Source: Promethearchaeota archaeon (GTDB lineage: Archaea; Asgardarchaeota; Lokiarchaeia; Sigyniarchaeales; SOKP01). From it: a DNA stretch of 34,727 bases. Below the pieces are notes generated by a model. That model saw only the letters and a program-made list of their open reading frames with translations, had not been told where the DNA came from and ran no database searches. Of this stretch, positions 1 to 33,186 are shown one piece after another (the stretch's first letter is position 1; every line of letters begins with the position of its first letter). The DNA is taken from positions 1 through 34,727 of the forward strand of contig JBHLME010000039.1 in the NCBI GenBank assembly GCA_048938445.1, written 5' to 3'. Position numbers and translations under genes: made by a program.

Positions 1-1080
1 AAGAATGGATTCGCTGGTGAGGATCAACCACGATCTGTATTTCCAACACTCATCGGATATCCAAAATACGAAAGTATAATGACTGATGTCGAGCACTACA
101 CCCGGGAATACTACATCGGAGAAGAGGCCATGCAACTTAAAGGTGTCTTGAAATTAATGTTTCCTGTGGAACACGGAATCATTGAAGATTGGACCGCAAT
201 GGAAAAAATCTGGCATTACACCTTTTACACAGACTTAAGAATCGATCCTAGCGAACATCCAGTACTCTTGACTGAGGCGCCATTAAATCCACGACCTAAC
301 CGTGAAAAAATGGCCGAAATCATGTTTGAGACTTTCAATACTCCCGCTCTTTACGTAGCAATGCAGGCAGTATTGTCTCTTTATGCTTCTGGTCGTACTA
401 CGGGATGCGTTATAGATATTGGTGATGGTGTATCACACGTTGTCCCAATTTTCGAAGGTTTCGCCTTAAGTCATGCCATTCAGAGAATTGACCTTGCTGG
501 TCGAGATATCACGACTTACTTACAAAGATTATTGAGACAAAAAGGATATTCATTTACTACATCAGCAGAAAAAGAAATTGTCCGAGATATCAAGGAAAAA
601 TTATGCTATGTAGCAATTGATCCTGAGAAAGAAATGATGCTTTCAAAGAAAGTCGCGGGAATGGAAAAGTCATACATGCTGCCAGATGGTGAAACCATCA
701 ATGTAGGTGTCGAAAGATTTTTAGCTCCTGAATGTTTCTTTAATCCAAGTGTAATTGGTAAAGAATTAGAACCCTTAGACGATGTTATCGTCGGTGCTAT
801 TTCAGAATGCGATGTCGATCTTAGAAGAGACCTTTACAGCAATATTGTACTTTCCGGTGGTTCTACCATGTTCCCTGGTATCAAGGAAAGACTAACCAAG
901 GAAATTAAAGAACAAATTCCTGAGTCGGTTGATGTAAAGATCATTGCACCTCCTGAAAGAATGTATTCCGTATGGATTGGCGGTTCTATCCTAAGTTCCT
1001 TGAAGACCTTCCACAGAATGTGGGTCACGAGAAGGGAATACAAAGAAATGGGACCTCAAGTCATTCATAGATGCTTTTAA
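1..1080 (+). CDS. Actin (lokiactin-type), 5'-truncated by window edge
   Basis: The frame is open from base 1 ([22 protein letters not shown]), so the ATG at 79 is internal. Actin motifs: [88 protein letters not shown]-terminal HRCF. Confidence 0.97.
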
Positions 1081-1205: not shown

Positions 1206-2645
1206 ATGAATTTAACACCAGAATATATTAAAGAAAACTTCGAACAGATAGGAATTAAAGAGGCTATATCACTTCTAAAAGAGTGTATCGATATCTCAAA
1301 AGATTTAAGGTTGAGAAATGAAGCTTTAGAATTTTTGAGTTCAATTGATTTTAATCTGGAGGAACATTTTAAATATTTCGAGCAGCTTTTCATTTCTGAT
1401 GAGAGTATTGAAATTAGAATGACTGCCGGGAAACTTTTAAGAAGTAAATATCTCCATCATAAAAAGATTATCTCATTGTTAAAATATACTTTACATAAAA
1501 TTAAAAGCGTGGAACAAAAGCTCTTATCATTAGAAATGCTGAATCAAATAAATACAAGGGAAAGCCGTAAAATAATCTTGGATTATACCAAAAATTCTCT
1601 GAAAAAGCATTTCAAAGATGATAAAAAGATATTACCAGAAGAGATCTTCAGTTCAAATTATCAACTTGAAATTTCACTTGAAGTTTTAGAAATTTGCGAA
1701 AATATCATCCTTAGAGATTATTACGTGAATGAACATGGATATTTAGTTTCATTTAGAGAAGGCCATATCATATTGCTTAATTGTGAGGGAAAAGAATTAT
1801 CTCACATTTCAGAAATTAAAGGATTAAATAAGCTTACACAACTTGAGTATCTTGTATTACAGAGGAATAAGATTAACCAAATCGAAGGACTTCATCATCT
1901 TAAAAATCTCAAAATTTTAAATTTCGCGAAAAATGAAATATCTATAATTGAAAAACTGCAGGATTTAAAAAATTTAGTCGAAATCGACCTTTCAAACAAT
2001 AATATTAAAAAAATTGAGAATCTCAATTCACTAAAGAACTTGAAAAACTTGTCTTTAGAAAATAATCAGATTGATGAGATACTGAACCTACAATCCTTAG
2101 AAAATTTAGAATCTTTAAATCTAAATCATAATAATATATCCCTGATTAAAAATTTAAACGATTTAAAGAAACTAAAAACTCTAAGCCTTACTTTTAATAA
2201 CATTCAAACTATTTCAGGATTGGATAACCTTGAAAATTTATCTTGGTTGCATCTTAGCAATAATAAAATATCAAATATAGAGGGATTAGCTAAACTCATT
2301 AATTTGAAGGGACTATATCTTTCAAACAATTGCATTACACGGATTTCTGGTTTGGATAATCAACAAAATCTCATAAAATTACAATTGTCTAACAATAATA
2401 TATCTAAAATTGAAGGCTTAAATAACCTTTCAAAATTACAAGAGCTATATCTGGATGACAATTTTATTGAAAAAATGGAGGGATTTGATAATTTAAATCA
2501 TTTGATAATACTTTTTCTCAAGAACAATAAAATTCAAGAGTATAAAAATGTAGATCATCTCAAGAACTTGAACTTTATATTCTTAAATGATAATCCCTTA
2601 AACAAGGAAAGTTGGAATCTATATAACAAGAGATTTAGATTTTAA
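1206..2645 (+). CDS. SDS22-class leucine-rich-repeat protein with helical (HEAT-like) N-terminus
   Basis: About 11 full 22-aa repeats of LxxLxLxxNxIxxIEGLxxLxN plus a terminal LNDNPL cap. The N-terminal 190 aa look helical. Confidence 0.9.
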   Translation: MNLTPEYIKENFEQIGIKEAISLLKECIDISKDLRLRNEALEFLSSIDFNLEEHFKYFEQLFISDESIEIRMTAGKLLRSKYLHHKKIISLLKYTLHKIKSVEQKLLSLEMLNQINTRESRKIILDYTKNSLKKHFKDDKKILPEEIFSSNYQLEISLEVLEICENIILRDYYVNEHGYLVSFREGHIILLNCEGKELSHISEIKGLNKLTQLEYLVLQRNKINQIEGLHHLKNLKILNFAKNEISIIEKLQDLKNLVEIDLSNNNIKKIENLNSLKNLKNLSLENNQIDEILNLQSLENLESLNLNHNNISLIKNLNDLKKLKTLSLTFNNIQTISGLDNLENLSWLHLSNNKISNIEGLAKLINLKGLYLSNNCITRISGLDNQQNLIKLQLSNNNISKIEGLNNLSKLQELYLDDNFIEKMEGFDNLNHLIILFLKNNKIQEYKNVDHLKNLNFIFLNDNPLNKESWNLYNKRFRF

Positions 2646-3274: not shown

Positions 3275-4102
3275 ATGTCAAAAGGAAAGGAGATAGTTTT
3301 CAAGCCACGATTGATAAAGAAAGATGACATGTATGGTAAAGAAGGATACACGCTTAACCTAATAAAACCTAATATCTACCAATTTGAGGCTAGAGGTGCT
3401 GGTTGTCATGTCTATCTCGTAATTGGTGAAAATCTCAATATATTAATTGATACGGGTATAATTTCTAAATTTAACAGTTTTAATTATCTTTTGACTACTG
3501 AAGTAGGATTAAAGGTTGAGGATATAAATCTAATAGTCAATACTCATGAACATTTCGATCATATCAGTTCAAATCCCTATTTTCATTGTCCAACAGCAGC
3601 ACACCGTTGGGCAGCAGTTAAAATACAGCATAGTGACGAGTTGATAACTAAAGGGAAAAAATGGGGTGTGGACTTAACAGATTTAAAAGTTAATATCTGG
3701 CTTGAAGATAGAAACATCATCGATTTAGGTAACGTGATATTGAAGGTTATAGAGACTCCTGGACATACTTCTGGGTGTATATGTCTTCATGAACCTGAAA
3801 AGCATTACACTTTCACAGGAGATACGTTATTTTCCGGAGCAACATCAAACATATATGAATCAGGGTCCATTTCAGAATACATTCAATCACTCAAAATATT
3901 AAACACGTTAAAAATTAATAGTTTCTACCCTAGTCACGGATTTTGGGTAATTGGTGAGGATAAAGTGAAACAGGAAATTGAAGCATCAATCACAAACGCA
4001 GAAATGGAACTACAAACGTTCATACACCGAGTAAAGAGCAAACCATTAGAGCAAGCGAGGCCTCCCCCCTCACTATACAATAGAGAAGAAGATGACTTAT
4101 AA
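3275..4102 (+). CDS. MBL-fold metallo-hydrolase (glyoxalase II-like)
   Basis: LIDTG, THEHFDH (HxHxDH), TPGHT, FTGDTLF, PSHG. ATG at 3275 preferred; GTG at 3260 possible. Confidence 0.9.
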   Translation: MSKGKEIVFKPRLIKKDDMYGKEGYTLNLIKPNIYQFEARGAGCHVYLVIGENLNILIDTGIISKFNSFNYLLTTEVGLKVEDINLIVNTHEHFDHISSNPYFHCPTAAHRWAAVKIQHSDELITKGKKWGVDLTDLKVNIWLEDRNIIDLGNVILKVIETPGHTSGCICLHEPEKHYTFTGDTLFSGATSNIYESGSISEYIQSLKILNTLKINSFYPSHGFWVIGEDKVKQEIEASITNAEMELQTFIHRVKSKPLEQARPPPSLYNREEDDL

Positions 4103-4112
4103 TACAAAAATT

Positions 4113-4733
4113 TTAAGATGTGACTATTTTTATTTCTGCTTCTGCTCCACAATAGTTACAAATTTTTAATTTTTTAGAAAAAATTTCTCCACAATTGGTA
4201 CATCTCTGGAGACGTTCATGAACAATACCTTCTGCAACCTTTTTAAAAGCTTTTTCCACGTTTTCACCCGTTTTTGATGACGTTGCAATAGGATCTCCAT
4301 AAAAATTAAATTTTTTAGCAAATTTAACTGATTCCTTAATATCTACTTGGTTTTCTTCTTTTAGATCTATTTTTGTTGCAATTAAGACTTTAACAATATT
4401 TTCATCAGTGTTATTATCAATTATTTCTAACCATTTTTCAACACCATCAAGAGTATCTTTTCGAGTTGAATCGAATAAGATTAACGCAGCAGCAGCTCCA
4501 TGCACGTATTGGGGAAATAAAACACGATATTTTTCTTCACCCCCAAAATCCCAAATCGTCAAATCTAAGCTTTTTTTTATATCAAGATCTAATTTTTTCC
4601 TTTTGAATGCCACTCCAATAGTGTCTCGCATTTTTTCATTAAACACGTTATCACAATATCTCGCTATTAAACTTGATTTTCCAACGTTTTTATCTCCTGC
4701 GAGTACAATTTTGTATTTTAACATAATATTCAT
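4113..4733 (-). CDS. Rab-like small GTPase with C-terminal zinc ribbon
   Basis: G1 GDKNVGKSS, G2 TIGVAF, G3 WDFGGEE, G4 TKID, G5 TSSK, tail CTNC-x10-CNYC. Start may be 4724. Confidence 0.92.
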   Translation of the reverse strand: MNIMLKYKIVLAGDKNVGKSSLIARYCDNVFNEKMRDTIGVAFKRKKLDLDIKKSLDLTIWDFGGEEKYRVLFPQYVHGAAAALILFDSTRKDTLDGVEKWLEIIDNNTDENIVKVLIATKIDLKEENQVDIKESVKFAKKFNFYGDPIATSSKTGENVEKAFKKVAEGIVHERLQRCTNCGEIFSKKLKICNYCGAEAEIKIVTS

Positions 4734-4839
4734 TACCTAAGAATATTCTCATTACCTCAATATAGAATCTATAAGTAAATGATAAATAAAAGACTTATCA
4801 TTCCTACTTACGTAATATGTTGCTCTATATAATTATATT

Positions 4840-5418
4840 TTATTGATGATTCTTTAAATACTCATCCAAAAAAATTTCGAACAACACCTCATCGTAATAT
4901 TCTGAATTCATATAAAATTGGTTTTTTCTAATACCAATTTTCTTGAATCCCATGCTTTCATAAAGATATAAACCTCTATTATTAGAAGAAAAACAGCTTA
5001 GTATTATTTTCTCTTTATTATATATTCTTTTTGACTCATAAATGGCGAAATCAATCATGGCACGTCCAATTCCTAAATCACGAAACTCTTTTCGAATAAT
5101 AATACCTAAACTAAACACGTGAGTAGCTGCTTCCCATTGCAAATTTGAGAGTTCACATTGTCCAACTATATGTTCTGGAGCCTTTAAATCGGGATTCTCT
5201 GCAACAATACACATTTCGTTTTCTTTTTTTAAATTATCAAACCACACTCGTTTTTCCCAATCTGTTTCAACCGGGGTAAGAACGGGAAGGAATACCGCTT
5301 CTTTTAAAACTTCATTAAAATTATTCCAGACACCTTTTACGTCTGATTTTTTCACGTGTCGAAAGATTATTTTGATTTTTTCTCGAGTTTTTAATTCAAA
5401 CTCTAAGACTTTTTTCAT
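4840..5418 (-). CDS. GNAT family N-acetyltransferase
   Basis: Acetyl-CoA motif FRDLGIGRAMI, plus NNRGLYLYESMGF and G.RKNQF..YYDEVL. Confidence 0.9.
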   Translation of the reverse strand: MKKVLEFELKTREKIKIIFRHVKKSDVKGVWNNFNEVLKEAVFLPVLTPVETDWEKRVWFDNLKKENEMCIVAENPDLKAPEHIVGQCELSNLQWEAATHVFSLGIIIRKEFRDLGIGRAMIDFAIYESKRIYNKEKIILSCFSSNNRGLYLYESMGFKKIGIRKNQFYMNSEYYDEVLFEIFLDEYLKNHQ

Positions 5419-5465
5419 ATGGTAAATAAATAATTTTTTTATATTAAATTGTTTATTTTATTAAT

Positions 5466-5924
5466 ATGGAGAAACAGGAGGATAATGATTCTCAAAAGGA
5501 CAAGGTTGATGCGGAAAAACTTAAAAGTTATATTGATGACATGGCTAAAGGTCAAAAAGCACCAGTTGCAAAAGATTTAGTAACATTAAAGCACGTGGAA
5601 ACCAAAAAACAAACAGTAAGTCAAGAAACAAAGAACTTGGCAGATGCTATAAAAGAAATAGGGGCTTTTGAAGAGAAGTCAGATGAACTTACGAATGATG
5701 AACTAACAATTCTTGAATCTTTTGAAAAAAAAAGGTTATTTTTATCCCGAATTGCCATTATCGTAAATCAAAGCAGAGTCATGATAGGAATGGAGGGATT
5801 TAAGAAAGCAGAATTGGAAGATATTCTCAATAATCTCATAGCTAAGGGATATTTAGATTCACAAGTAGTTAATGAGAACATAGTATACATTCTTACAGAA
5901 AAAGGCGAGGAACGAATTCAATAA
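5466..5924 (+). CDS. Hypothetical protein with C-terminal winged-helix domain
   Basis: C-terminal ILNNLIAKGYL..YILTEKG is a typical winged-helix ending. The N-terminus is charged and low-complexity. Confidence 0.65.
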   Translation: MEKQEDNDSQKDKVDAEKLKSYIDDMAKGQKAPVAKDLVTLKHVETKKQTVSQETKNLADAIKEIGAFEEKSDELTNDELTILESFEKKRLFLSRIAIIVNQSRVMIGMEGFKKAELEDILNNLIAKGYLDSQVVNENIVYILTEKGEERIQ

Positions 5925-5950
5925 ACAGAAAAAATTTATTAAAATTAATT

Positions 5951-6313
5951 TTAGTCTTTTTTTAAGAGCAAGTTTTTAATAGGAATATCAGCAAATTCTC
6001 CCGAAGGGTATTCTCTTCTAAGAGTTAAAGGTAAAATTCTAGATTTTAATTCTAATTGGGCAATTTTTATGGGATCAATCATCTTCTTTGGTTTTTCGAC
6101 CAAAATTGGTGCGCCAAAGCTAATTTGGAGTGCTCTTGCCCCTACAATTCTTGCTTTTTCATATCTCGTGAGAAATATTGACCCAATTTCATGATCAATC
6201 TCAATTTTTGTCTCTTCATCTAAATTCTTGCGATATTTAGACACATCTCTCAAGTATTTTTTAACTTCTTTGTATTTTTTTCTCAATTCTCTTGATTCTA
6301 AAAAACTCGACAC
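5951..6313 (-). CDS. rpo6: DNA-directed RNA polymerase subunit Rpo6/K (RPB6 homologue)
   Basis: LTRYEKARIVGARALQISFGAP, DPIKIAQLEL, LPLTLRREYPSG. GTG start. Confidence 0.95.
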   Translation of the reverse strand: MSSFLESRELRKKYKEVKKYLRDVSKYRKNLDEETKIEIDHEIGSIFLTRYEKARIVGARALQISFGAPILVEKPKKMIDPIKIAQLELKSRILPLTLRREYPSGEFADIPIKNLLLKKD

Positions 6314-6404
6314 GACAAACCTGACCTAAGAAAAAGTAGTTACTATATACTATACAGACTAAAATATATTTTTTTTGTTTTTTGATATAAAATAATAATT
6401 TTAA

Positions 6405-6539
6405 TGCGCGAGGAGGGATTCGAACCCCCGGCCATCGTGATCAAAATCTTAACGATTTTAAGAATTACACGGTGTGAGCGTTTAACGTTTAATGCCTTAT
6501 GGCATAAAAGTCGTTATAGCCAAGCTAAACCACTCGCGC
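6405..6539 (-). tRNA. tRNA-Val(CAC) with two non-canonical introns (28/29 and 44/45)
   Basis: Exons 6539-6510, 6481-6466 and 6433-6405 join into a 75-nt cloverleaf: acceptor GCGCGAG/CTCGCGC-A, D arm GTTT..TAAC, anticodon stem ACACG/CGTGT, loop CT-CAC-AC, variable AGGCC, T arm GGGGG-TTCGAAT-CCCTC. CCA is not encoded. Confidence 0.92.
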
Positions 6540-6672
6540 TAATTTTTTCGTATATTTTTTTTTTAATATTATTAAAAAGTTATTAATTGAATTTAAGAGA
6601 TTCGATGGACTCTAATATTTTATATAATTCTAATCAATTTCTAATTTTGAATAAAATCTATAGTTATTTCTG

Positions 6673-9015
6673 ATGATCATTCAACTAAACAAAGAAGATT
6701 TCATTTCTCATCCCTTAGTAAAACATAATTCAATCATTCGGCGAGCTTATCAAGAAAGTATCTTTATTAATTGCCTAAATAAAAATTCTCTTGTCGTAAT
6801 ACCTACCGGTTTGGGAAAAACTATTATTGCAATAATGCTAAGCGTTCAAAGATTGACTGAAAAACCGGATTCAAGGATAGTGTTTTTAGCCCCCACGAAA
6901 CCTTTAGTTGAGCAACATTATAAATCATTTATAGACCTTACAGAAATTGATCCTGATTCTTTGAAGGTAATCACTGGAACAATTGTTCCAGAAAAGAGAA
7001 AGTTACTTTGGAAAGATGTAAAGGTTGCTTTCATGACACCCCAAGTATTTCAAAATGATATCATATCAAGTCTATATTCAATTCAAGATGTTTCTTTGGT
7101 TATTTTTGATGAATGTCATCGAGCAGTTGGGGATTATGCTTATTGTTATATAGCACAAAAATATATAAACAGTTCAACATCCCCACAGATCTTGGGTATA
7201 ACTGCAAGTCCCGGTTCTACTGAAGAGAAAATTAATGAGATTAAACAGAACTTGTATATCGATCATTTAGAAATCAGGACAGAGCAAGATTCTGATGTAA
7301 AACCCTATATATATGAAGTAGATAATGTCTGGATAAAAATAAAATTGCCTCCCGAATTTTTAGATATAAAAAAAATTCTAGAAGATAAATTAAGAGCATG
7401 TTATAAGTTTCTAAAAGAAAGTGACTTGCTTGATTCTTATGATATAAACAAGGTAAATAGAAAGGATCTTTTGAAAGTGAGCAACATCATTAACCGTAGA
7501 ATTATTACTTCTCATGATGAAGGGGAAAAATTCCAGATGTTTTATGCGAAAAAATTAGCAGCAAATGCAATTAGATTATCGCACATGACAGAACTCATCG
7601 AAACTCAAGGGATTAACGCTTTAAAGGATTATATAGGAAAAAATGAAGAAAAAATCAAAAAAAATAGCGCAAACAAGTCATTAAAGGAATTACATGCGGA
7701 TAAGGATTTTATTAGAGTGAAAGAACTCACTTATTTACTCCAATCAATAGGATTGATACATCCTAAAATTGAAAAACTAAAAGAAATATTAATTAATCAA
7801 TTAAAAGAGAATCGCAATTCACGAATATTGGTTTTTTGTCATTTTAGGGATTCAGTCAATAACATAGTAAGGATATTCAAGGATAACGAGCTAATAAAAG
7901 TTCATAAATTTGTCGGACAAGCGACAAAGGGTTCTGATAAAGGTCTTACTCAAAAAGAGCAGGTAAAACTTCTTGAAGAATTTAAGATGGGAACTTATAA
8001 CACGTTAATAGGAACGAGTGTAGCCGAAGAAGGATTGGATATAGCAGAATGTGATCTTGTAATATTTTATGATGTCGTGCCAAGTGCAATTCGATCCATA
8101 CAAAGACGGGGGCGGACGGGACGAAAAAAGGAGGGTAAAGTATATGTATTAATGGCAGAAAATACTCGCGATGAGGGATATTATTGGGCAGAAAAAACTA
8201 AAGAGAAAAATATGAAACGAAGTTTGAATAAAATGAAAAACTCAGAAAATTCTAAACAAGGTCAATCAAACTTATTGAATTTTATTTCTCAAGAGAAAGA
8301 TAATGATAATGAAAGCTCTCATGAGACTAATGAAATAAATGAGATCATTCAAAAAATAGATGGAGCGGAAAAATATCAGATCTTTTGCGATAATCGTGAA
8401 ACTTCATCACCCGTTGTGAGGATTTTATCATTAATGGGTGTAAATATAAAGTTAGATCAATTATCCGTAGCAGATTATATAATATCCCAGAGAGTAGGAT
8501 TCGAAAGGAAATCTGCACAAGATTTTAGCGATTCTATAAAAGATGGAAGATTGTTCAATGAATTATTAGAATTAAAAAATAAATTTGATCGTCCCATCCT
8601 GATTTTAGAAGGAGATCCATTCTCAAGTTCAAGTATCAACGAAAATGCTCTATATGGAGCAATTGCTTCAATCATTTTAAACATGGGAATTAATATATAC
8701 AAGACAGAAAATCCAAAGGATACGGCAATGTTCTTATATCAAATGGCTAAAAAAGAACAAAAGGAGACAATCTCAAATATAAATTTACGCTTTGAGAAAG
8801 CGCCTCTCGATACATCGCATTTACTTGAATTCATAATTGCAGGAATACCAGGCGTAAATTCTCTTAGAGCAAGAAATCTTTTGAAAGAATTAAAAACTTT
8901 ACAAAATATATTCAATTCCGATATTCCGGATTTAACTAAAATTGATAATATTGGAAAGAAAATTGCCCAACAAATTTATAAAATCAGTAGATATAAGTAT
9001 GACTTAAAATCCTGA
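6673..9015 (+). CDS. hef: Hef helicase/nuclease (FANCM/Mph1-like helicase + ERCC4 nuclease + HhH)
   Basis: PTGLGKT, APTKPLVEQH, DECH, TASPG, TSVAEEGLDI, QRRGRTGR, then DNRE and ERKSAQD nuclease motifs and GIPGV/NIGKK HhH pair. Confidence 0.95.
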   Translation: MIIQLNKEDFISHPLVKHNSIIRRAYQESIFINCLNKNSLVVIPTGLGKTIIAIMLSVQRLTEKPDSRIVFLAPTKPLVEQHYKSFIDLTEIDPDSLKVITGTIVPEKRKLLWKDVKVAFMTPQVFQNDIISSLYSIQDVSLVIFDECHRAVGDYAYCYIAQKYINSSTSPQILGITASPGSTEEKINEIKQNLYIDHLEIRTEQDSDVKPYIYEVDNVWIKIKLPPEFLDIKKILEDKLRACYKFLKESDLLDSYDINKVNRKDLLKVSNIINRRIITSHDEGEKFQMFYAKKLAANAIRLSHMTELIETQGINALKDYIGKNEEKIKKNSANKSLKELHADKDFIRVKELTYLLQSIGLIHPKIEKLKEILINQLKENRNSRILVFCHFRDSVNNIVRIFKDNELIKVHKFVGQATKGSDKGLTQKEQVKLLEEFKMGTYNTLIGTSVAEEGLDIAECDLVIFYDVVPSAIRSIQRRGRTGRKKEGKVYVLMAENTRDEGYYWAEKTKEKNMKRSLNKMKNSENSKQGQSNLLNFISQEKDNDNESSHETNEINEIIQKIDGAEKYQIFCDNRETSSPVVRILSLMGVNIKLDQLSVADYIISQRVGFERKSAQDFSDSIKDGRLFNELLELKNKFDRPILILEGDPFSSSSINENALYGAIASIILNMGINIYKTENPKDTAMFLYQMAKKEQKETISNINLRFEKAPLDTSHLLEFIIAGIPGVNSLRARNLLKELKTLQNIFNSDIPDLTKIDNIGKKIAQQIYKISRYKYDLKS

Positions 9016-9683: not shown

Positions 9684-10274
9684 ATGATAAAATTTAAAGT
9701 CGTTGTCGCTGGTGCGAAGAATGTCGGGAAAACATCGCTTATCAGACGCTATGCTACTGGAAAATTTGATAAATCAACACTTTCAACTATAGGTGTGGAT
9801 TTTGAGACAAAGAAAATAAATGTAGATGGAACTGAAATCCTTTTAAACATTTGGGACTTCGCAGGAGAGAAGAAATTTCGTTTATTATTACCATCTTACG
9901 TGTCGGGTGCATCTGGAGCATTAATGCTATATGATATAACAAATAAAGACTCTCTCAATGATTTATACGATTGGATAAAGGTTATTTCTTCAGTTCCAAA
10001 TGGACCTCACACTAAATTATTAATTGAAGCAAAAATAGACTTAGCTGAAGAACGAGAAATAAGTAAAGATGAAGCCCAAAAAATATTCGATAAATATAAG
10101 TTTCAAGGAGAGATAATCGGCACGTCTTCTAAGACAGGAGAAAACGTGGAAAAAGCTTTTGAAATGTTAGGACGTCAAATATTAAAAAATTCGTTGAAAA
10201 AATGTCCAAGTTGCGATAAACTTTATCCAAAAGAGTTGAAATTCTGCCAATATTGTGGTGCAAAGACACAATAA
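9684..10274 (+). CDS. Rab-like small GTPase with C-terminal zinc ribbon (paralogue of 4113-4733)
   Basis: GAKNVGKTS, TIGVDF, WDFAGEK, AKID, TSSKTGENVEKAF, tail CPSC-x10-CQYC. AGGAG upstream of the ATG. Confidence 0.93.
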   Translation: MIKFKVVVAGAKNVGKTSLIRRYATGKFDKSTLSTIGVDFETKKINVDGTEILLNIWDFAGEKKFRLLLPSYVSGASGALMLYDITNKDSLNDLYDWIKVISSVPNGPHTKLLIEAKIDLAEEREISKDEAQKIFDKYKFQGEIIGTSSKTGENVEKAFEMLGRQILKNSLKKCPSCDKLYPKELKFCQYCGAKTQ

Positions 10275-24934: not shown

Positions 24935-25600
24935 TTATTTCTTTCTAAGATTAGAAAATAATCGTTCATGCATTTCATAAAATTTATCTAAATTTTCATT
25001 TTCAAGAATAACAGGTTTTCCTATCTGTAAAGCACCCCAGTAGAGATATGCTAACTTTTCAACTAGTTCAGCATATTTTACAGCATTAATAACTGATTTT
25101 CCACAAACAATTACACCGTGATTAGAAAGCAATGCAGCATTTTTATTACCTAACGCTTTTAATGCAACTTCACCAACTTTTTCAGTATGAGCTTCTCCAT
25201 AAGGAGCGAGATCAATAGATCCACCTAAAAATACGACCTGTTCTTCCATTATTATGGGTACATGTTTCCTTGTTATTGAAAGCATTGTTGCATATGGTGA
25301 ATGAGTATGTATCACACATTTTACCTTGGGTCGAGCTTTATATATTGCGAGATGTAGTTTAGTTTCCGTAGATGGTATCTTACCTTTCCCAATAACATTA
25401 CCATTAAAATCTAAATGAGTAATTTGTTCAATCGTTAAGGAATCATATTGATTTGCTGTTGGAGTTATAAAGATCTCTTCTTTTCTTCCATTCCTAACAC
25501 TGATATTCCCTTCGTTATTATCATTTAATCCTTTTTCAAAGATTTTCTTAGCACCATCTACAACTTCTTTTCGAAATTTTAATTCTTTATCTTCTACCAT
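24935..25600 (-). CDS. Class II aldolase/adducin family protein (FucA-like)
   Basis: EGNISVR, ITPT, PSTE..LH..IY, HTHSPYAT, NHG. ATG at 25600 preferred. Confidence 0.92.
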   Translation of the reverse strand: MVEDKELKFRKEVVDGAKKIFEKGLNDNNEGNISVRNGRKEEIFITPTANQYDSLTIEQITHLDFNGNVIGKGKIPSTETKLHLAIYKARPKVKCVIHTHSPYATMLSITRKHVPIIMEEQVVFLGGSIDLAPYGEAHTEKVGEVALKALGNKNAALLSNHGVIVCGKSVINAVKYAELVEKLAYLYWGALQIGKPVILENENLDKFYEMHERLFSNLRKK

Positions 25601-25718
25601 ATTATTATTGAATGTAAACAATTTATTAAAAATCACCATAGTCTCTTATATTAAATTAAATGTAAATGAGTGCTTTTTCAGAAACAAATTACTTTTTTTA
25701 AAATTTTAATATATAATA

Positions 25719-27826: not shown

Positions 27827-29884
27827 TTAATTCGTAGCTAATATCTTATTAATTTCTCTTTTTAAACCCGAATTTTGGGGATTTCTATTTAAGTCATTCA
27901 AAAAGTATACTAATTTATATAATTCAATTTTCTTAAGAAATTCCTTATCTATTGGTTTCTTATAATATTTTTCATAACCGTCATAAAAGGCTTTATTTAA
28001 TTCTGATAGTCTAAATATCCTTAAAGTTAAGTATTCAAAAGGTGCAAAATCCATAGCTCGCACGCCAACTCTCCAATTTTCGAAATTTAAGAATCCATTT
28101 ATTCTAATTGCTGAAGTTTCATCTTTAATAATGATATTCTGACCATGAAAATCGTTATGTAATGCGATTGATTCATACTCTTCTTCAATTAATGTATAAT
28201 TGTCCTTTATATATTCTTTAATTTCTTTATTGAGGTTTATTTTATTTTTTTTTGCTTCTGCTAAAATATATTCAAATTCCTTATCAAATATTTCAAACCA
28301 AGATTTTTTACTTGTTTCTTTTCCAATTTCCGTTACTTTCTCATAAAATGAATTAAATTTTATGCCATGAATTTTTGCTAACGTTTTTCCAGCATTTTTA
28401 AAAAAAATATTCAACTTTGGAATTTCTAATTCAAAGTTTTCCATTTTAAATCTTTTTTTATAATAATAAAAAGGTTTACCCGGAATATATTCTTGTATCG
28501 TGTAATTACATGGAAAGAATTGTTTTGACTCATCAAAATAAATTAAATTTGGAACAGGAATAATTGGATGTTTTTCAGCATCAAATATATAATTACCCTT
28601 AACCTTTGATATTATTTTTTTTATCTCATTTCTGAGTTCGGGGATTTCAGCGTGTAGTGTACCATCAAGAAAAGGATATAATAATTTTTCCCTACATATT
28701 TCAGTTTCATTACTGGATTTTAGATCATTAAAACGAAGAATTAAGTCTTGATCAAATTTTATCCGATAAATTGTACTAGTTTTCTGATTTCGATCATAAG
28801 GACCTTTAATCCGCCTTATAACACCCAAGTCTTTAATATCTTCTATTACTTGAAATTTTTCTTTCAATTCAAGGAAGTTAAATAATTCATTTCCAACGGG
28901 ATATAACTTATCGATATAATTTAGATTTAACAAATAATGAATAGTAACATCGATCCTATATAAAACAAATTTTTCTACTGGTTTCTGAAATTCCAGAGAA
29001 AAATTCATCGTATCATTATATGAAAGCTCTAAACTATCTTTATATAAGGAATAAAACGCATATTTAAGGCCTCTTTGCTGCTTCCCGAATTTAGTTTGAT
29101 TGTCATAAATTTTATCACGGAATTCATTAATAGCTTCTTGATATTGAGCAATTTTTAAAGGATCTTCTTCAACTGCTGCGAGATATAGCTTTTTGCATAC
29201 ATTTAACACATTACTAATGCTTGGAATAAGAGCGGAATACTTTCTCTTCTCTTTGGGTATTAATTGAAGAAATTGGGAAAATTGACGTTCTTTTCCACAA
29301 CAAACTGAAAAATTTTCACTTATATTTTGAATATATCCCTTATAATTCCCCAATTTTTCTGACGAATCCTTGATTCCAATAATATTTGGGTATTTAATTA
29401 ACTCGGTTAAAATATTTTGAGAAATATTATTACCTGCAAATAAAGTTGGATTATTGTATAATATAATTTTATTATCTACATTTATCGAGTCAAGGATATT
29501 AATAAAAAATGATTTCAAATCATCCTCAACTAATTTTTCAGTTAAAGGAGAGGGAAGTAGGAAATTTAAATTTTTAAATTTCTTTCCAAACATTTCAATT
29601 TCATCAATAATTCTATTAGAATTATTCTGGAAAATTCCGGATATAATTGGTTTTTTTTGAACATCATTTCCAAGAACAAAATTGATAAGTTTTGATTTTT
29701 CCTCTAATCTTTCTGAGAAACTATTTCCTTCACCAGTCGTACCAAATAATAGAATTGAATCAGCTCCATTTAAATATACATGTTTAAGTAGAATTGATGT
29801 CATATCAAGATTTATTTTAAAATTTTTGTCAAAAAAAGTAAGAGTCGGACAAATGATACCATTAATTGGGATATTTTGAATCAC
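27827..29884 (-). CDS. DHDPS/NAL-family lyase fused to APH/choline-kinase-like domain
   Basis: N-half GTTGEG, LYNNP, GIKDSS. C-half IPVPNL, IQEYIPG, LAKIH, LHNDFHGQNIII, LNFE, MDFA. Confidence 0.85.
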   Translation of the reverse strand: MIQNIPINGIICPTLTFFDKNFKINLDMTSILLKHVYLNGADSILLFGTTGEGNSFSERLEEKSKLINFVLGNDVQKKPIISGIFQNNSNRIIDEIEMFGKKFKNLNFLLPSPLTEKLVEDDLKSFFINILDSINVDNKIILYNNPTLFAGNNISQNILTELIKYPNIIGIKDSSEKLGNYKGYIQNISENFSVCCGKERQFSQFLQLIPKEKRKYSALIPSISNVLNVCKKLYLAAVEEDPLKIAQYQEAINEFRDKIYDNQTKFGKQQRGLKYAFYSLYKDSLELSYNDTMNFSLEFQKPVEKFVLYRIDVTIHYLLNLNYIDKLYPVGNELFNFLELKEKFQVIEDIKDLGVIRRIKGPYDRNQKTSTIYRIKFDQDLILRFNDLKSSNETEICREKLLYPFLDGTLHAEIPELRNEIKKIISKVKGNYIFDAEKHPIIPVPNLIYFDESKQFFPCNYTIQEYIPGKPFYYYKKRFKMENFELEIPKLNIFFKNAGKTLAKIHGIKFNSFYEKVTEIGKETSKKSWFEIFDKEFEYILAEAKKNKINLNKEIKEYIKDNYTLIEEEYESIALHNDFHGQNIIIKDETSAIRINGFLNFENWRVGVRAMDFAPFEYLTLRIFRLSELNKAFYDGYEKYYKKPIDKEFLKKIELYKLVYFLNDLNRNPQNSGLKREINKILATN

Positions 29885-31491: not shown

Positions 31492-33186
31492 TTATATTTT
31501 TTTTGATTCCTTAAACACTTCAAAAATTTCTTGTTCGAATTCAACCGTATCTTCTGGTAGAAGTGTAGGGTCTCCTAAGAGTTTTGATTTATAGTATATT
31601 TCTGAACCCCTTTCAACATATTCCAAAACCGTATAAGCGCCCTCTAAATGACTTCCACAACATAAGCTTCCATGATTAGGTAATAATAAAGCATTTTTTT
31701 TTTCTAAACTGTTTATTACATTTTCAGCAAGTTCAGGGCTTCCAGCTTCCCCATATTCTGCACAAATGATTTCTCCACCAACGTAAGGTACCAATTCTTC
31801 AATTATTGGAGGTAAAGTCATTTTATGAGTGCTTAAAATTGTGGAATAAATACCATGAGAATGGATAATGGCATTCACGTCATCCCTAGCTTTATATACT
31901 CCCAAATGTAAAAATTTCTCTACAGAAGGATTTCTTTCTCCTTCTATAACCTTTCCTTCCATATTAATAGTGAGAATATCTTCGGGTATCATATCAACAT
32001 ATTTAACATTACTTGGAGTTATAAGCACGAATTCCTCATCATCTTGTTTGACTCTCACGCTTATATTTCCTGCGGAACCAATAACATGGCCATCTTTCAA
32101 TAATTTTTTACATGTTTTTACAATTTCATTCTTTAATTCATTATTATCATCATTTTTTATTTTCATATGATCACCTCTTTTTACTTTAAAAACTTCAGGA
32201 TTAAGGATATTTTTTGGTATTTGACCATTTAACCATTCTTTTATATCTGTCAATAATAAATTAGATTGAATAACTACTACTTCTTCAGTATCACCACCTA
32301 TGTGAGGTGAAACGATAGCATTTTCTAATTCTAAAAACTCATTATCCTCATCTATAGGTTCCATTGGAAATACATCCAATGCGGCACCAGCAATTTGCTT
32401 CTCTTTTAATGCATCATACAGAGCATCATAATCAACGAGACTTCCTTTAGAAGTATTTATGAGAATTGCTGTTTTTTTCATCATTGCTAAACGATCTTTA
32501 TTTATAAGATTATCATTTTCATCTGTTGCTACTGTGTGAATTGTTATAATATCAGAATTTTTCATTAATTCATCAATATCCACTTTTTTACCATACTTCA
32601 CAATTGTTTCATTATTAACATAAGGATCATAAATTAATAAAGAAACTCCGAAAGCTTTTAACCGGTCTGCAACCCTACGACCAATCTGACCTAATCCAAT
32701 TATCCCTGCAGTCTTTCCGTTTAATTCAAAACCTTGAAATTGATTAATATAATTGATATAATCTTCAAAATCTATTAATTCAAAATCATCAGAATGTAAT
32801 ACTCTTTCTAGATTTTGAAGTTTTCTCGCTAACATTAGAATGTATGCTATGGTTAACTCTGCTACCGCAACTACATTTCTTAGAGGAGTTTTAGTTACAG
32901 GAATTCCCTTTTCAGTGGCAGCATTTAAATCAATATTAAATGGGTCTCCCCTACAAGATACAAGGAATTTTAAATTAGTTTTTTCGAATAACTCTTTTTT
33001 TTTTAAATCATCTGTTTCCGTTATAAAAATATCATAACCATCTAATTTTTCCGCAAGTACATTGATATCTAAATAAATAATGCCTGTTTCACGCCATGGC
33101 TCATAAGTAACATCCATTAAATTCTTTAATTCTTCCAAACACTCCTTGGTTATACTTGCTGTTATTAAAGCTTTCATTTTTTTCAC
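31492..33186 (-). CDS. D-2-hydroxyacid dehydrogenase (SerA2-like) fused to class II aldolase
   Basis: GIIGLGQIG, YDPY, INTSKG, LDVFPMEP, PHIGG, then SAGNISVR, ITPS, PSVE, HSH, NHG in one frame. Confidence 0.92.
   Translation of the reverse strand: MKKMKALITASITKECLEELKNLMDVTYEPWRETGIIYLDINVLAEKLDGYDIFITETDDLKKKELFEKTNLKFLVSCRGDPFNIDLNAATEKGIPVTKTPLRNVVAVAELTIAYILMLARKLQNLERVLHSDDFELIDFEDYINYINQFQGFELNGKTAGIIGLGQIGRRVADRLKAFGVSLLIYDPYVNNETIVKYGKKVDIDELMKNSDIITIHTVATDENDNLINKDRLAMMKKTAILINTSKGSLVDYDALYDALKEKQIAGAALDVFPMEPIDEDNEFLELENAIVSPHIGGDTEEVVVIQSNLLLTDIKEWLNGQIPKNILNPEVFKVKRGDHMKIKNDDNNELKNEIVKTCKKLLKDGHVIGSAGNISVRVKQDDEEFVLITPSNVKYVDMIPEDILTINMEGKVIEGERNPSVEKFLHLGVYKARDDVNAIIHSHGIYSTILSTHKMTLPPIIEELVPYVGGEIICAEYGEAGSPELAENVINSLEKKNALLLPNHGSLCCGSHLEGAYTVLEYVERGSEIYYKSKLLGDPTLLPEDTVEFEQEIFEVFKESKKI

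Follow-up and report, generated by a model that had tools for sequence, protein, structure and literature searches.

A putative three-exon tRNA-Val(CAC) gene with two non-canonical introns in a Lokiarchaeota-type Asgard genome

The stretch of DNA analysed here (referred to as the window) is 34,727 bases in its full length. On the minus strand, reading from 6539 to 6405, a 7-nt acceptor strand comes first, and further along there is a textbook T arm (GGTTCGAATCC) followed by the complementary acceptor strand and an A discriminator; the span is 135 nt, compared to about 75 nt for a usual tRNA. ARAGORN reports no tRNA anywhere in the 34,727-base window, there are zero Rfam matches for tRNA in the window at gathering thresholds, and a permissive Rfam scan of positions 6300–6650 (351 nt) gives no match to the tRNA model. 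The sole tRNA-clan match in this segment is a tmRNA fragment lying on the T arm, with a score of 8.8 bits; the other weak Rfam matches (BTnc060, ST7-OT3, CRISPR-DR, a plastid psbI-rps4 3′UTR element, and CPEB3) are treated as chance.

The initial annotation of this DNA had proposed a three-exon tRNA-Val(CAC) gene for this locus, and had warned that standard annotation may miss it; for ARAGORN and the Rfam tRNA model the warning is borne out. Because both miss the gene, tRNAs would seem to be lacking from the genome, and it may be the tRNA from this locus that reads GUG codons there. A scan of the window for T-loop motifs and GC-rich islands yields no candidate for other hidden tRNAs, the only other T-loop match (at 3567, plus strand) and the remaining GC-rich islands falling within listed ORFs.

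An uninterrupted ortholog and the exon boundaries

A species-representative genome collection was scanned with the 3′-terminal 22-mer of the gene, with 78 loci among the matches listed. By title, 77 of these are bacterial tRNAs, which have the T arm and acceptor end in common with the query, and the locus that was read is the remaining one, L077 (SDNY01000041.1, from a MAG labelled Promethearchaeota), the sole archaeal comparator among the 78 matches listed; the window's own genome is absent from the matches listed. Promethearchaeota is a phylum within the Asgard kingdom Promethearchaeati in the NCBI taxonomy. L077 carries an uninterrupted tRNA-Val(cac) that is detected by ARAGORN and that reaches 64.6 bits on Rfam RF00005, where the gathering score is 29. 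The two sequences are collinear on both flanks over window positions 4147–8984, with 72.8% nucleotide identity over 2433 bases in the adjoining gene for a 780-residue helicase-nuclease and 65.3% identity over 2130 bases in the genes on the other side of the tRNA, and the L077 tRNA is therefore the positional ortholog.

A MAFFT alignment of the locus with this ortholog, which is blind to any motif, opens two gaps, of 28 and 32 columns, whose ends coincide exactly with the intron boundaries that had been proposed, and the parts of the gene are as follows.

6405..6539, minus strand: whole tRNA-Val(CAC) precursor gene, 135 nt, with no CCA encoded
6510..6539, minus strand: exon 1, 30 nt, comprising the acceptor 5′ strand, D arm, G26, A27 and C28; 29/30 identical to L077 2948–2977
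6482..6509, minus strand: intron 1, 28 nt, at tRNA position 28/29 (5′ strand of the anticodon stem); absent from the ortholog (28-column gap)
6466..6481, minus strand: exon 2, 16 nt, A29 to A44, comprising the remaining anticodon stem and the whole anticodon loop; 16/16 identical to the ortholog
6434..6465, minus strand: intron 2, 32 nt, at tRNA position 44/45 (start of the variable loop); absent from the ortholog (32-column gap)
6405..6433, minus strand: exon 3, 29 nt, comprising variable loop positions 45–48, the T arm, the acceptor 3′ strand and discriminator A73; 27/29 identical to the ortholog

When the exons are joined in silico the product is a 75-nt cloverleaf, which ARAGORN calls as tRNA-Val(cac) with a perfect 5-bp anticodon stem. 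The cloverleaf pairs of this spliced product are standard in 20 of 21 cases, and the lone mismatch, U13·U22, is also present in the ortholog. The anticodon CAC is at 6476–6474 and A73 at 6405 (both on the minus strand). Valine identity is marked by A35, C36 and the discriminator A73, all of which are present in the spliced tRNA. A D loop of 10 nt, the length it has when the ortholog is aligned to the Rfam model, gives the junctions their numbering as 28/29 and 44/45.

Of the 75 positions of the spliced product, 72 match the ortholog. One of the three differences falls in the D loop, another in the variable loop, and the third at pair 50:64, which is G·U here and A-U in the ortholog, such that pairing is kept; judged from the aligned sequences, this substitution pattern is that expected of a tRNA gene under selection. 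The Rfam tRNA family threshold is passed by this closely matching ortholog, and the unspliced locus fails it. In the test applied to archaeal tRNA introns, the intervening sequences are absent from the compact ortholog and their removal restores a tRNA. As far as sequence comparison can speak, the intronless syntenic ortholog is decisive for the exon boundaries, and an exhaustive search finds that one boundary set alone, (30,58,74,106) in precursor numbering, reproduces the product.

Several elements of the earlier proposal can be judged at this point. A tRNA-Val(CAC) in three exons is upheld both by the ARAGORN call on the spliced 75-mer and by the ortholog. The sizes and coordinates that had been given for the introns (28 nt, 6509–6482, and 32 nt, 6465–6434) are exact to the base, with every motif described for them present, and both junctions at the non-canonical sites 28/29 and 44/45 are confirmed by L077. 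The claims of a perfect anticodon stem after splicing and of a middle exon of only 16 nt (6481–6466) agree with the ARAGORN structure and with the ortholog, respectively. An intronless positional ortholog in a relative with approximately 73%-identical flanking genes also provides a clean before-and-after pair for the gain or loss of tRNA introns.

Splicing motifs and competing readings of the locus

Because the intron boundaries are set by the intronless ortholog, they are independent of structure, and with these boundaries fixed the in-register pairing of each intron was compared with that in 100,000 shuffles per intron. The elements of the splicing motifs are as follows.

6512..6515, minus strand: intron 1 central helix (H), 5′ strand AACG (tRNA positions 23–26), pairing with CGTT at 6487–6484
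6484..6487, minus strand: intron 1 central helix, 3′ strand CGTT, within the intron (fold and register test)
6488..6508, minus strand: intron 1 inner hairpin (h′), with a 5-bp stem and a 4-nt loop (MFE and centroid folds)
6468..6471, minus strand: intron 2 central helix (H), 5′ strand CGTG (tRNA positions 39–42, the 3′ strand of the anticodon stem), pairing with CACG at 6439–6436
6436..6439, minus strand: intron 2 central helix, 3′ strand CACG, within the intron, with the same letters as anticodon-stem positions 28–31
6441..6461, minus strand: intron 2 inner hairpin, 8 bp including one G·U, with a 5-nt loop (MFE and centroid folds)

Both central helices have four of four Watson-Crick pairs, in register for a cut after the second base of a 3-nt bulge (bulges ACT and AAA for intron 1, TAA and ATG for intron 2), and the mirror register gives 0/4 pairs for either intron. 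Shuffled sequences with an in-register helix of four Watson-Crick pairs occur at a frequency of 0.00314 for intron 1 and 0.00063 for intron 2, and chance alone does not account for the central-helix motif. For the 135-nt precursor the folding energy is −42.2 kcal/mol compared to −31.5 ± 3.3 for shuffled sequences (z = −3.2; 0/200 as good), and its centroid structure holds both central helices together with both inner hairpins.

The structural part of the initial annotation needs some refinement. The helices AACG/CGTT and CGTG/CACG that it described, with their bulges, are in the sequence as fully paired and in register, and its two inner hairpins are both predicted in the MFE and centroid folds, but it did not mention an irregularity in each intron. 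In intron 1 the h′ stem is extended by 2–3 A-T pairs across one bulged or mismatched T, and in intron 2 three unpaired bases (TTC) in the 5′ strand, facing a lone T in the 3′ strand, separate the bulge from the hairpin, such that the 5′ ‘bulge’ is really a 6×1 internal loop. It had also regarded both motifs as relaxed with a poor flanking helix, and the folds agree, having no outer helix beside either central helix and thus not the strict hBHBh′ form; outside H no base pairs are possible next to that of intron 1, and at most one C-G pair next to that of intron 2. Since the outer helix is missing and the 5′ site of intron 2 sits in a 6×1 loop, the introns belong to the relaxed HBh′ class rather than the strict one.

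We note two additional features of this region. First, a long-range 5-bp helix between 6521–6517 and 6434–6430 (minus strand), present in both the MFE and centroid folds, joins D-loop bases to the intron 2/exon 3 junction and closes both intron domains into a three-way junction; since the 3′ cut site of intron 2 falls within this helix, its formation would work against a clean bulge at that site. Secondly, AAACG is present twice around the 3′ splice site of intron 1, at 6490–6486 and 6483–6479 (minus strand) with 2 bases between the copies, and AACG is found a third time at the end of exon 1 (6515–6512, minus strand). These repeats could be a trace of the origin of the intron, or could simply follow from the palindromic AACGTT underlying the central helix.

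The relaxed nature of both motifs, and the fact that a close relative manages without either insertion, leave some room for the locus to be a tRNA-Val pseudogene, in which two unrelated small insertions are never removed. We consider this improbable, however, as all 75 exon positions are intact, with the three differences from the ortholog lying in loops or preserving a pair, and random insertions would each need to bring an in-register 4-bp Watson-Crick helix, with probabilities of 0.003 and 0.0006. Moreover, neither ARAGORN nor the scan for T-loop motifs and GC-rich islands finds another tRNA of any kind in the window, so no replacement for a decayed gene is seen there.

A different architecture for a genuine tRNA gene, with one long intron and another anticodon or with shifted cut sites, is a poorer explanation still and in our view very unlikely. 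Run in its intron mode (-i) on the precursor, ARAGORN does return a tRNA-Arg(tct), i(35,42), with a 42-nt intron and a 93-nt product, although in this model the anticodon stem contains a mismatch and the extra arm is too long. The intron-mode calls are also inconsistent across the precursor and the two half-spliced forms, being Arg(tct), Leu(taa) and Gly(gcc), and we have rejected all three, as they contradict each other and the ortholog. A helix shifted by one base, UAAC/GUUA (candidate 29/59), likewise has four of four Watson-Crick pairs, but its use would delete two anticodon-stem bases. Against any such arrangement, the intronless ortholog fixes the mature sequence, and no boundary set but the one given above leads to it. 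A metagenome-type assembly is the probable source of the window, but that the insertions are an assembly or binning artefact is the least credible of these readings, given that the flanks are collinear with those of the ortholog on both sides and that each insertion is small, clean, and hairpin-bearing with an in-register helix, which are not structures that assembly errors create.

Proposed processing of the precursor

The reading that we favor, and consider very probable, is that a Lokiarchaeota-type Asgard archaeon has at this locus a functional tRNA-Val(CAC) gene, which would be expressed as a precursor of about 135 nt with two EndA-type introns, to be cleaved and ligated. In this precursor the 3′ strand of the D stem together with G26 (AACG) would pair with the 3′ end of intron 1, and the 3′ strand of the anticodon stem (CGTG) with the 3′ end of intron 2, with each pairing providing the 4-bp central helix of a relaxed HBh′ motif, that is, a central helix and an inner intron hairpin without an outer helix. 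The archaeal splicing endonuclease would cut after the second nucleotide of each 3-nt bulge, and an RNA ligase would join the three exons into the 75-nt tRNA, with CCA added afterwards. We infer the cleavage by EndA, the ligation, and the CCA addition from the established processing of archaeal tRNA introns.

The central helix of intron 1 needs the D stem to be melted, and that of intron 2 excludes the anticodon stem; because the intron helices use the 3′ strands of both stems, the precursor is unable to adopt the full cloverleaf. In partition-function folding of the full precursor the pair probabilities are 0.62–0.67 for the intron 1 helix and about 0.54 for the intron 2 helix, with the anticodon stem at no more than 0.02. 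Removal of intron 2 leaves the intron 1 helix at about 0.70. When intron 1 is removed, the intron 2 helix drops to about 0.09, because the anticodon stem then forms (0.79–0.87). As a thermodynamic prediction, these probabilities suggest either that both introns would be cut on the intact precursor, or that intron 2 would be cut first.

A more speculative extension of this model, to which we attach only tentative belief and which may well be wrong, is that the two introns are functionally coupled, with the splicing of intron 2 dependent on the presence of intron 1. By splitting the 5′ strand of the anticodon stem, intron 1 would leave the 3′ strand free to build the splicing helix of intron 2. 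If such coupling is real, there would be an obligatory order, with intron 2 cut first or both introns cut on the intact precursor, and intron 2 would be tolerable only in a gene already bearing intron 1; the locus would then offer a concrete example in which one tRNA intron made the gain of a second possible.

Relationship to other archaeal tRNA introns and genomic context

In canonical archaeal introns, as described in PMC4090602, the central helix is formed by the 5′-exon strand and the intron. Both introns here are similar to a canonical 37/38 BHB intron as outlined in that review, with a 4-bp central helix between the exon 5′ strand and the intron, two splice sites that lie on opposite strands at a distance of 4 bp, and predicted cleavage behind the second base of the bulge. 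They depart from it in being at 28/29 and 44/45 rather than at 37/38, in lacking the outer helix h, and in that the motifs can form only at the expense of the D stem and anticodon stem of the precursor.

The tRNA genes of the Thermoproteales are described as having up to three introns per gene, with hBH or HBh′ motifs and a heteromeric, broad-specificity EndA (PMC4090602, PMC4033280). The locus is similar to their multi-intron tRNA genes (Sugahara et al. 2007/2008, as cited in PMC4090602 and PMC4033280) in the non-canonical positions and the relaxed motifs, but the Thermoproteales belong to TACK and the host here is an Asgard archaeon. A further point beside the Thermoproteales is that no second copy of intron 1 or intron 2 is found within the 34.7-kb window with up to 3 mismatches allowed. 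The text of the two reviews (PMC4090602, PMC4033280) makes no mention of positions 28/29 or 44/45.

The initial annotation had stated that multi-intron tRNAs are known mainly from Thermoproteales, which is out of date, as Asgard cases are reported in PMC11291895 and in a preprint (Goswami et al. 2026; 10.64898/2026.10.13.758758). According to PMC11291895, in three complete Asgard genomes 92–95% of tRNA genes contain introns, often at non-canonical positions, and more than half have several. The preprint describes the finding of such introns by comparison with compact relatives, as was done for the present locus, reports that tRNAscan-SE misses 25–30% of intervening sequences in Asgard genomes and that many intron gains in Asgard tRNA genes are lineage-specific, and gives canonical motifs only about 20% of the time for missed insertions in the anticodon stem and variable region; it treats the entry and loss of tRNA gene introns as the central open problem (10.64898/2026.10.13.758758). 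The locus is similar to the cases described in these two sources in several respects: an Asgard host, several short introns per gene (the published median is 22–23 nt), non-canonical positions including the anticodon stem and the variable region, relaxed motifs, which are common there, a gene missed by standard tools, and gains seen as presence or absence between relatives. The focal lineages of the published work are different from that of this locus, being Atabeyarchaeia, Freyrarchaeaceae and Jordiarchaeaceae, and ‘Lokiarchae’ and ‘Promethearchae’ have 0 occurrences in the main text of the preprint, supplements aside (10.64898/2026.10.13.758758).

For the splicing endonuclease, PMC5829648 describes the Asgard EndA, from four Asgard genomes, as an (αβ)2 enzyme with an L1 loop linked to broad specificity, and points to unidentified disrupted tRNA genes behind the incomplete tRNA sets of Asgard genomes. 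A gene that ARAGORN and Rfam miss is exactly the concern raised for Asgard genomes in that paper. The initial annotation's suggestion that this lineage would need a broad-specificity splicing endonuclease is thus already in the literature for Asgard archaea. Earlier publications on this group likewise cover multiply interrupted tRNA genes and their escape from annotation tools, and the locus fits this picture; beyond its value for annotation and as one member of an ortholog pair, it is an ordinary instance of a described phenomenon.

A Pfam scan of the window covered 33 ORFs, 25 of which have some match, and none of the 33 matches an EndA family at E ≤ 1e-5. The genes most relevant to the origin of the window and to the surroundings of the tRNA are as follows.

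1..1080, plus strand: actin (Pfam Actin, 396.7 bits), open at the window start
1206..2645, plus strand: leucine-rich-repeat protein (Pfam scan)
4113..4733, minus strand, and 9684..10274, plus strand: two Ras-family small GTPases (Pfam scan)
5951..6313, minus strand: Rpb6/RpoK-like RNA polymerase subunit ORF (PF01192, E 1.9e-07)
6673..9015, plus strand: Hef-like protein of 780 residues, with DEAD/Helicase_C, ERCC4 nuclease, and helix-hairpin-helix domains (Pfam scan)

Actin, Ras-family GTPases, and leucine-rich-repeat proteins are eukaryote-like signature genes typical of Asgard genomes. Together with other genes of the window, a G+C content of about 30%, and the synteny with L077, the actin and GTPase genes support an Asgard, Lokiarchaeota-type origin, and the assignment to an Asgard lineage that had been made earlier fits the actin, the two GTPases, and the synteny with a Promethearchaeota MAG.

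The Rpb6/RpoK-like ORF follows the tRNA on the same strand, some 90 nt further downstream, an arrangement that is kept in L077, and co-transcription of the two is possible. On the other side the gene for the Hef-like protein divergently adjoins the tRNA and is also conserved in L077, with about 73% nucleotide identity. Elsewhere in the window there are two unusual domain fusions, one of a DHDPS-family domain with an APH phosphotransferase (685 aa, 27827–29884, minus strand), and the other of a 2-hydroxyacid dehydrogenase with a class II aldolase (564 aa, 31492–33186, minus strand); a stand-alone class II aldolase is located at 24935–25639.
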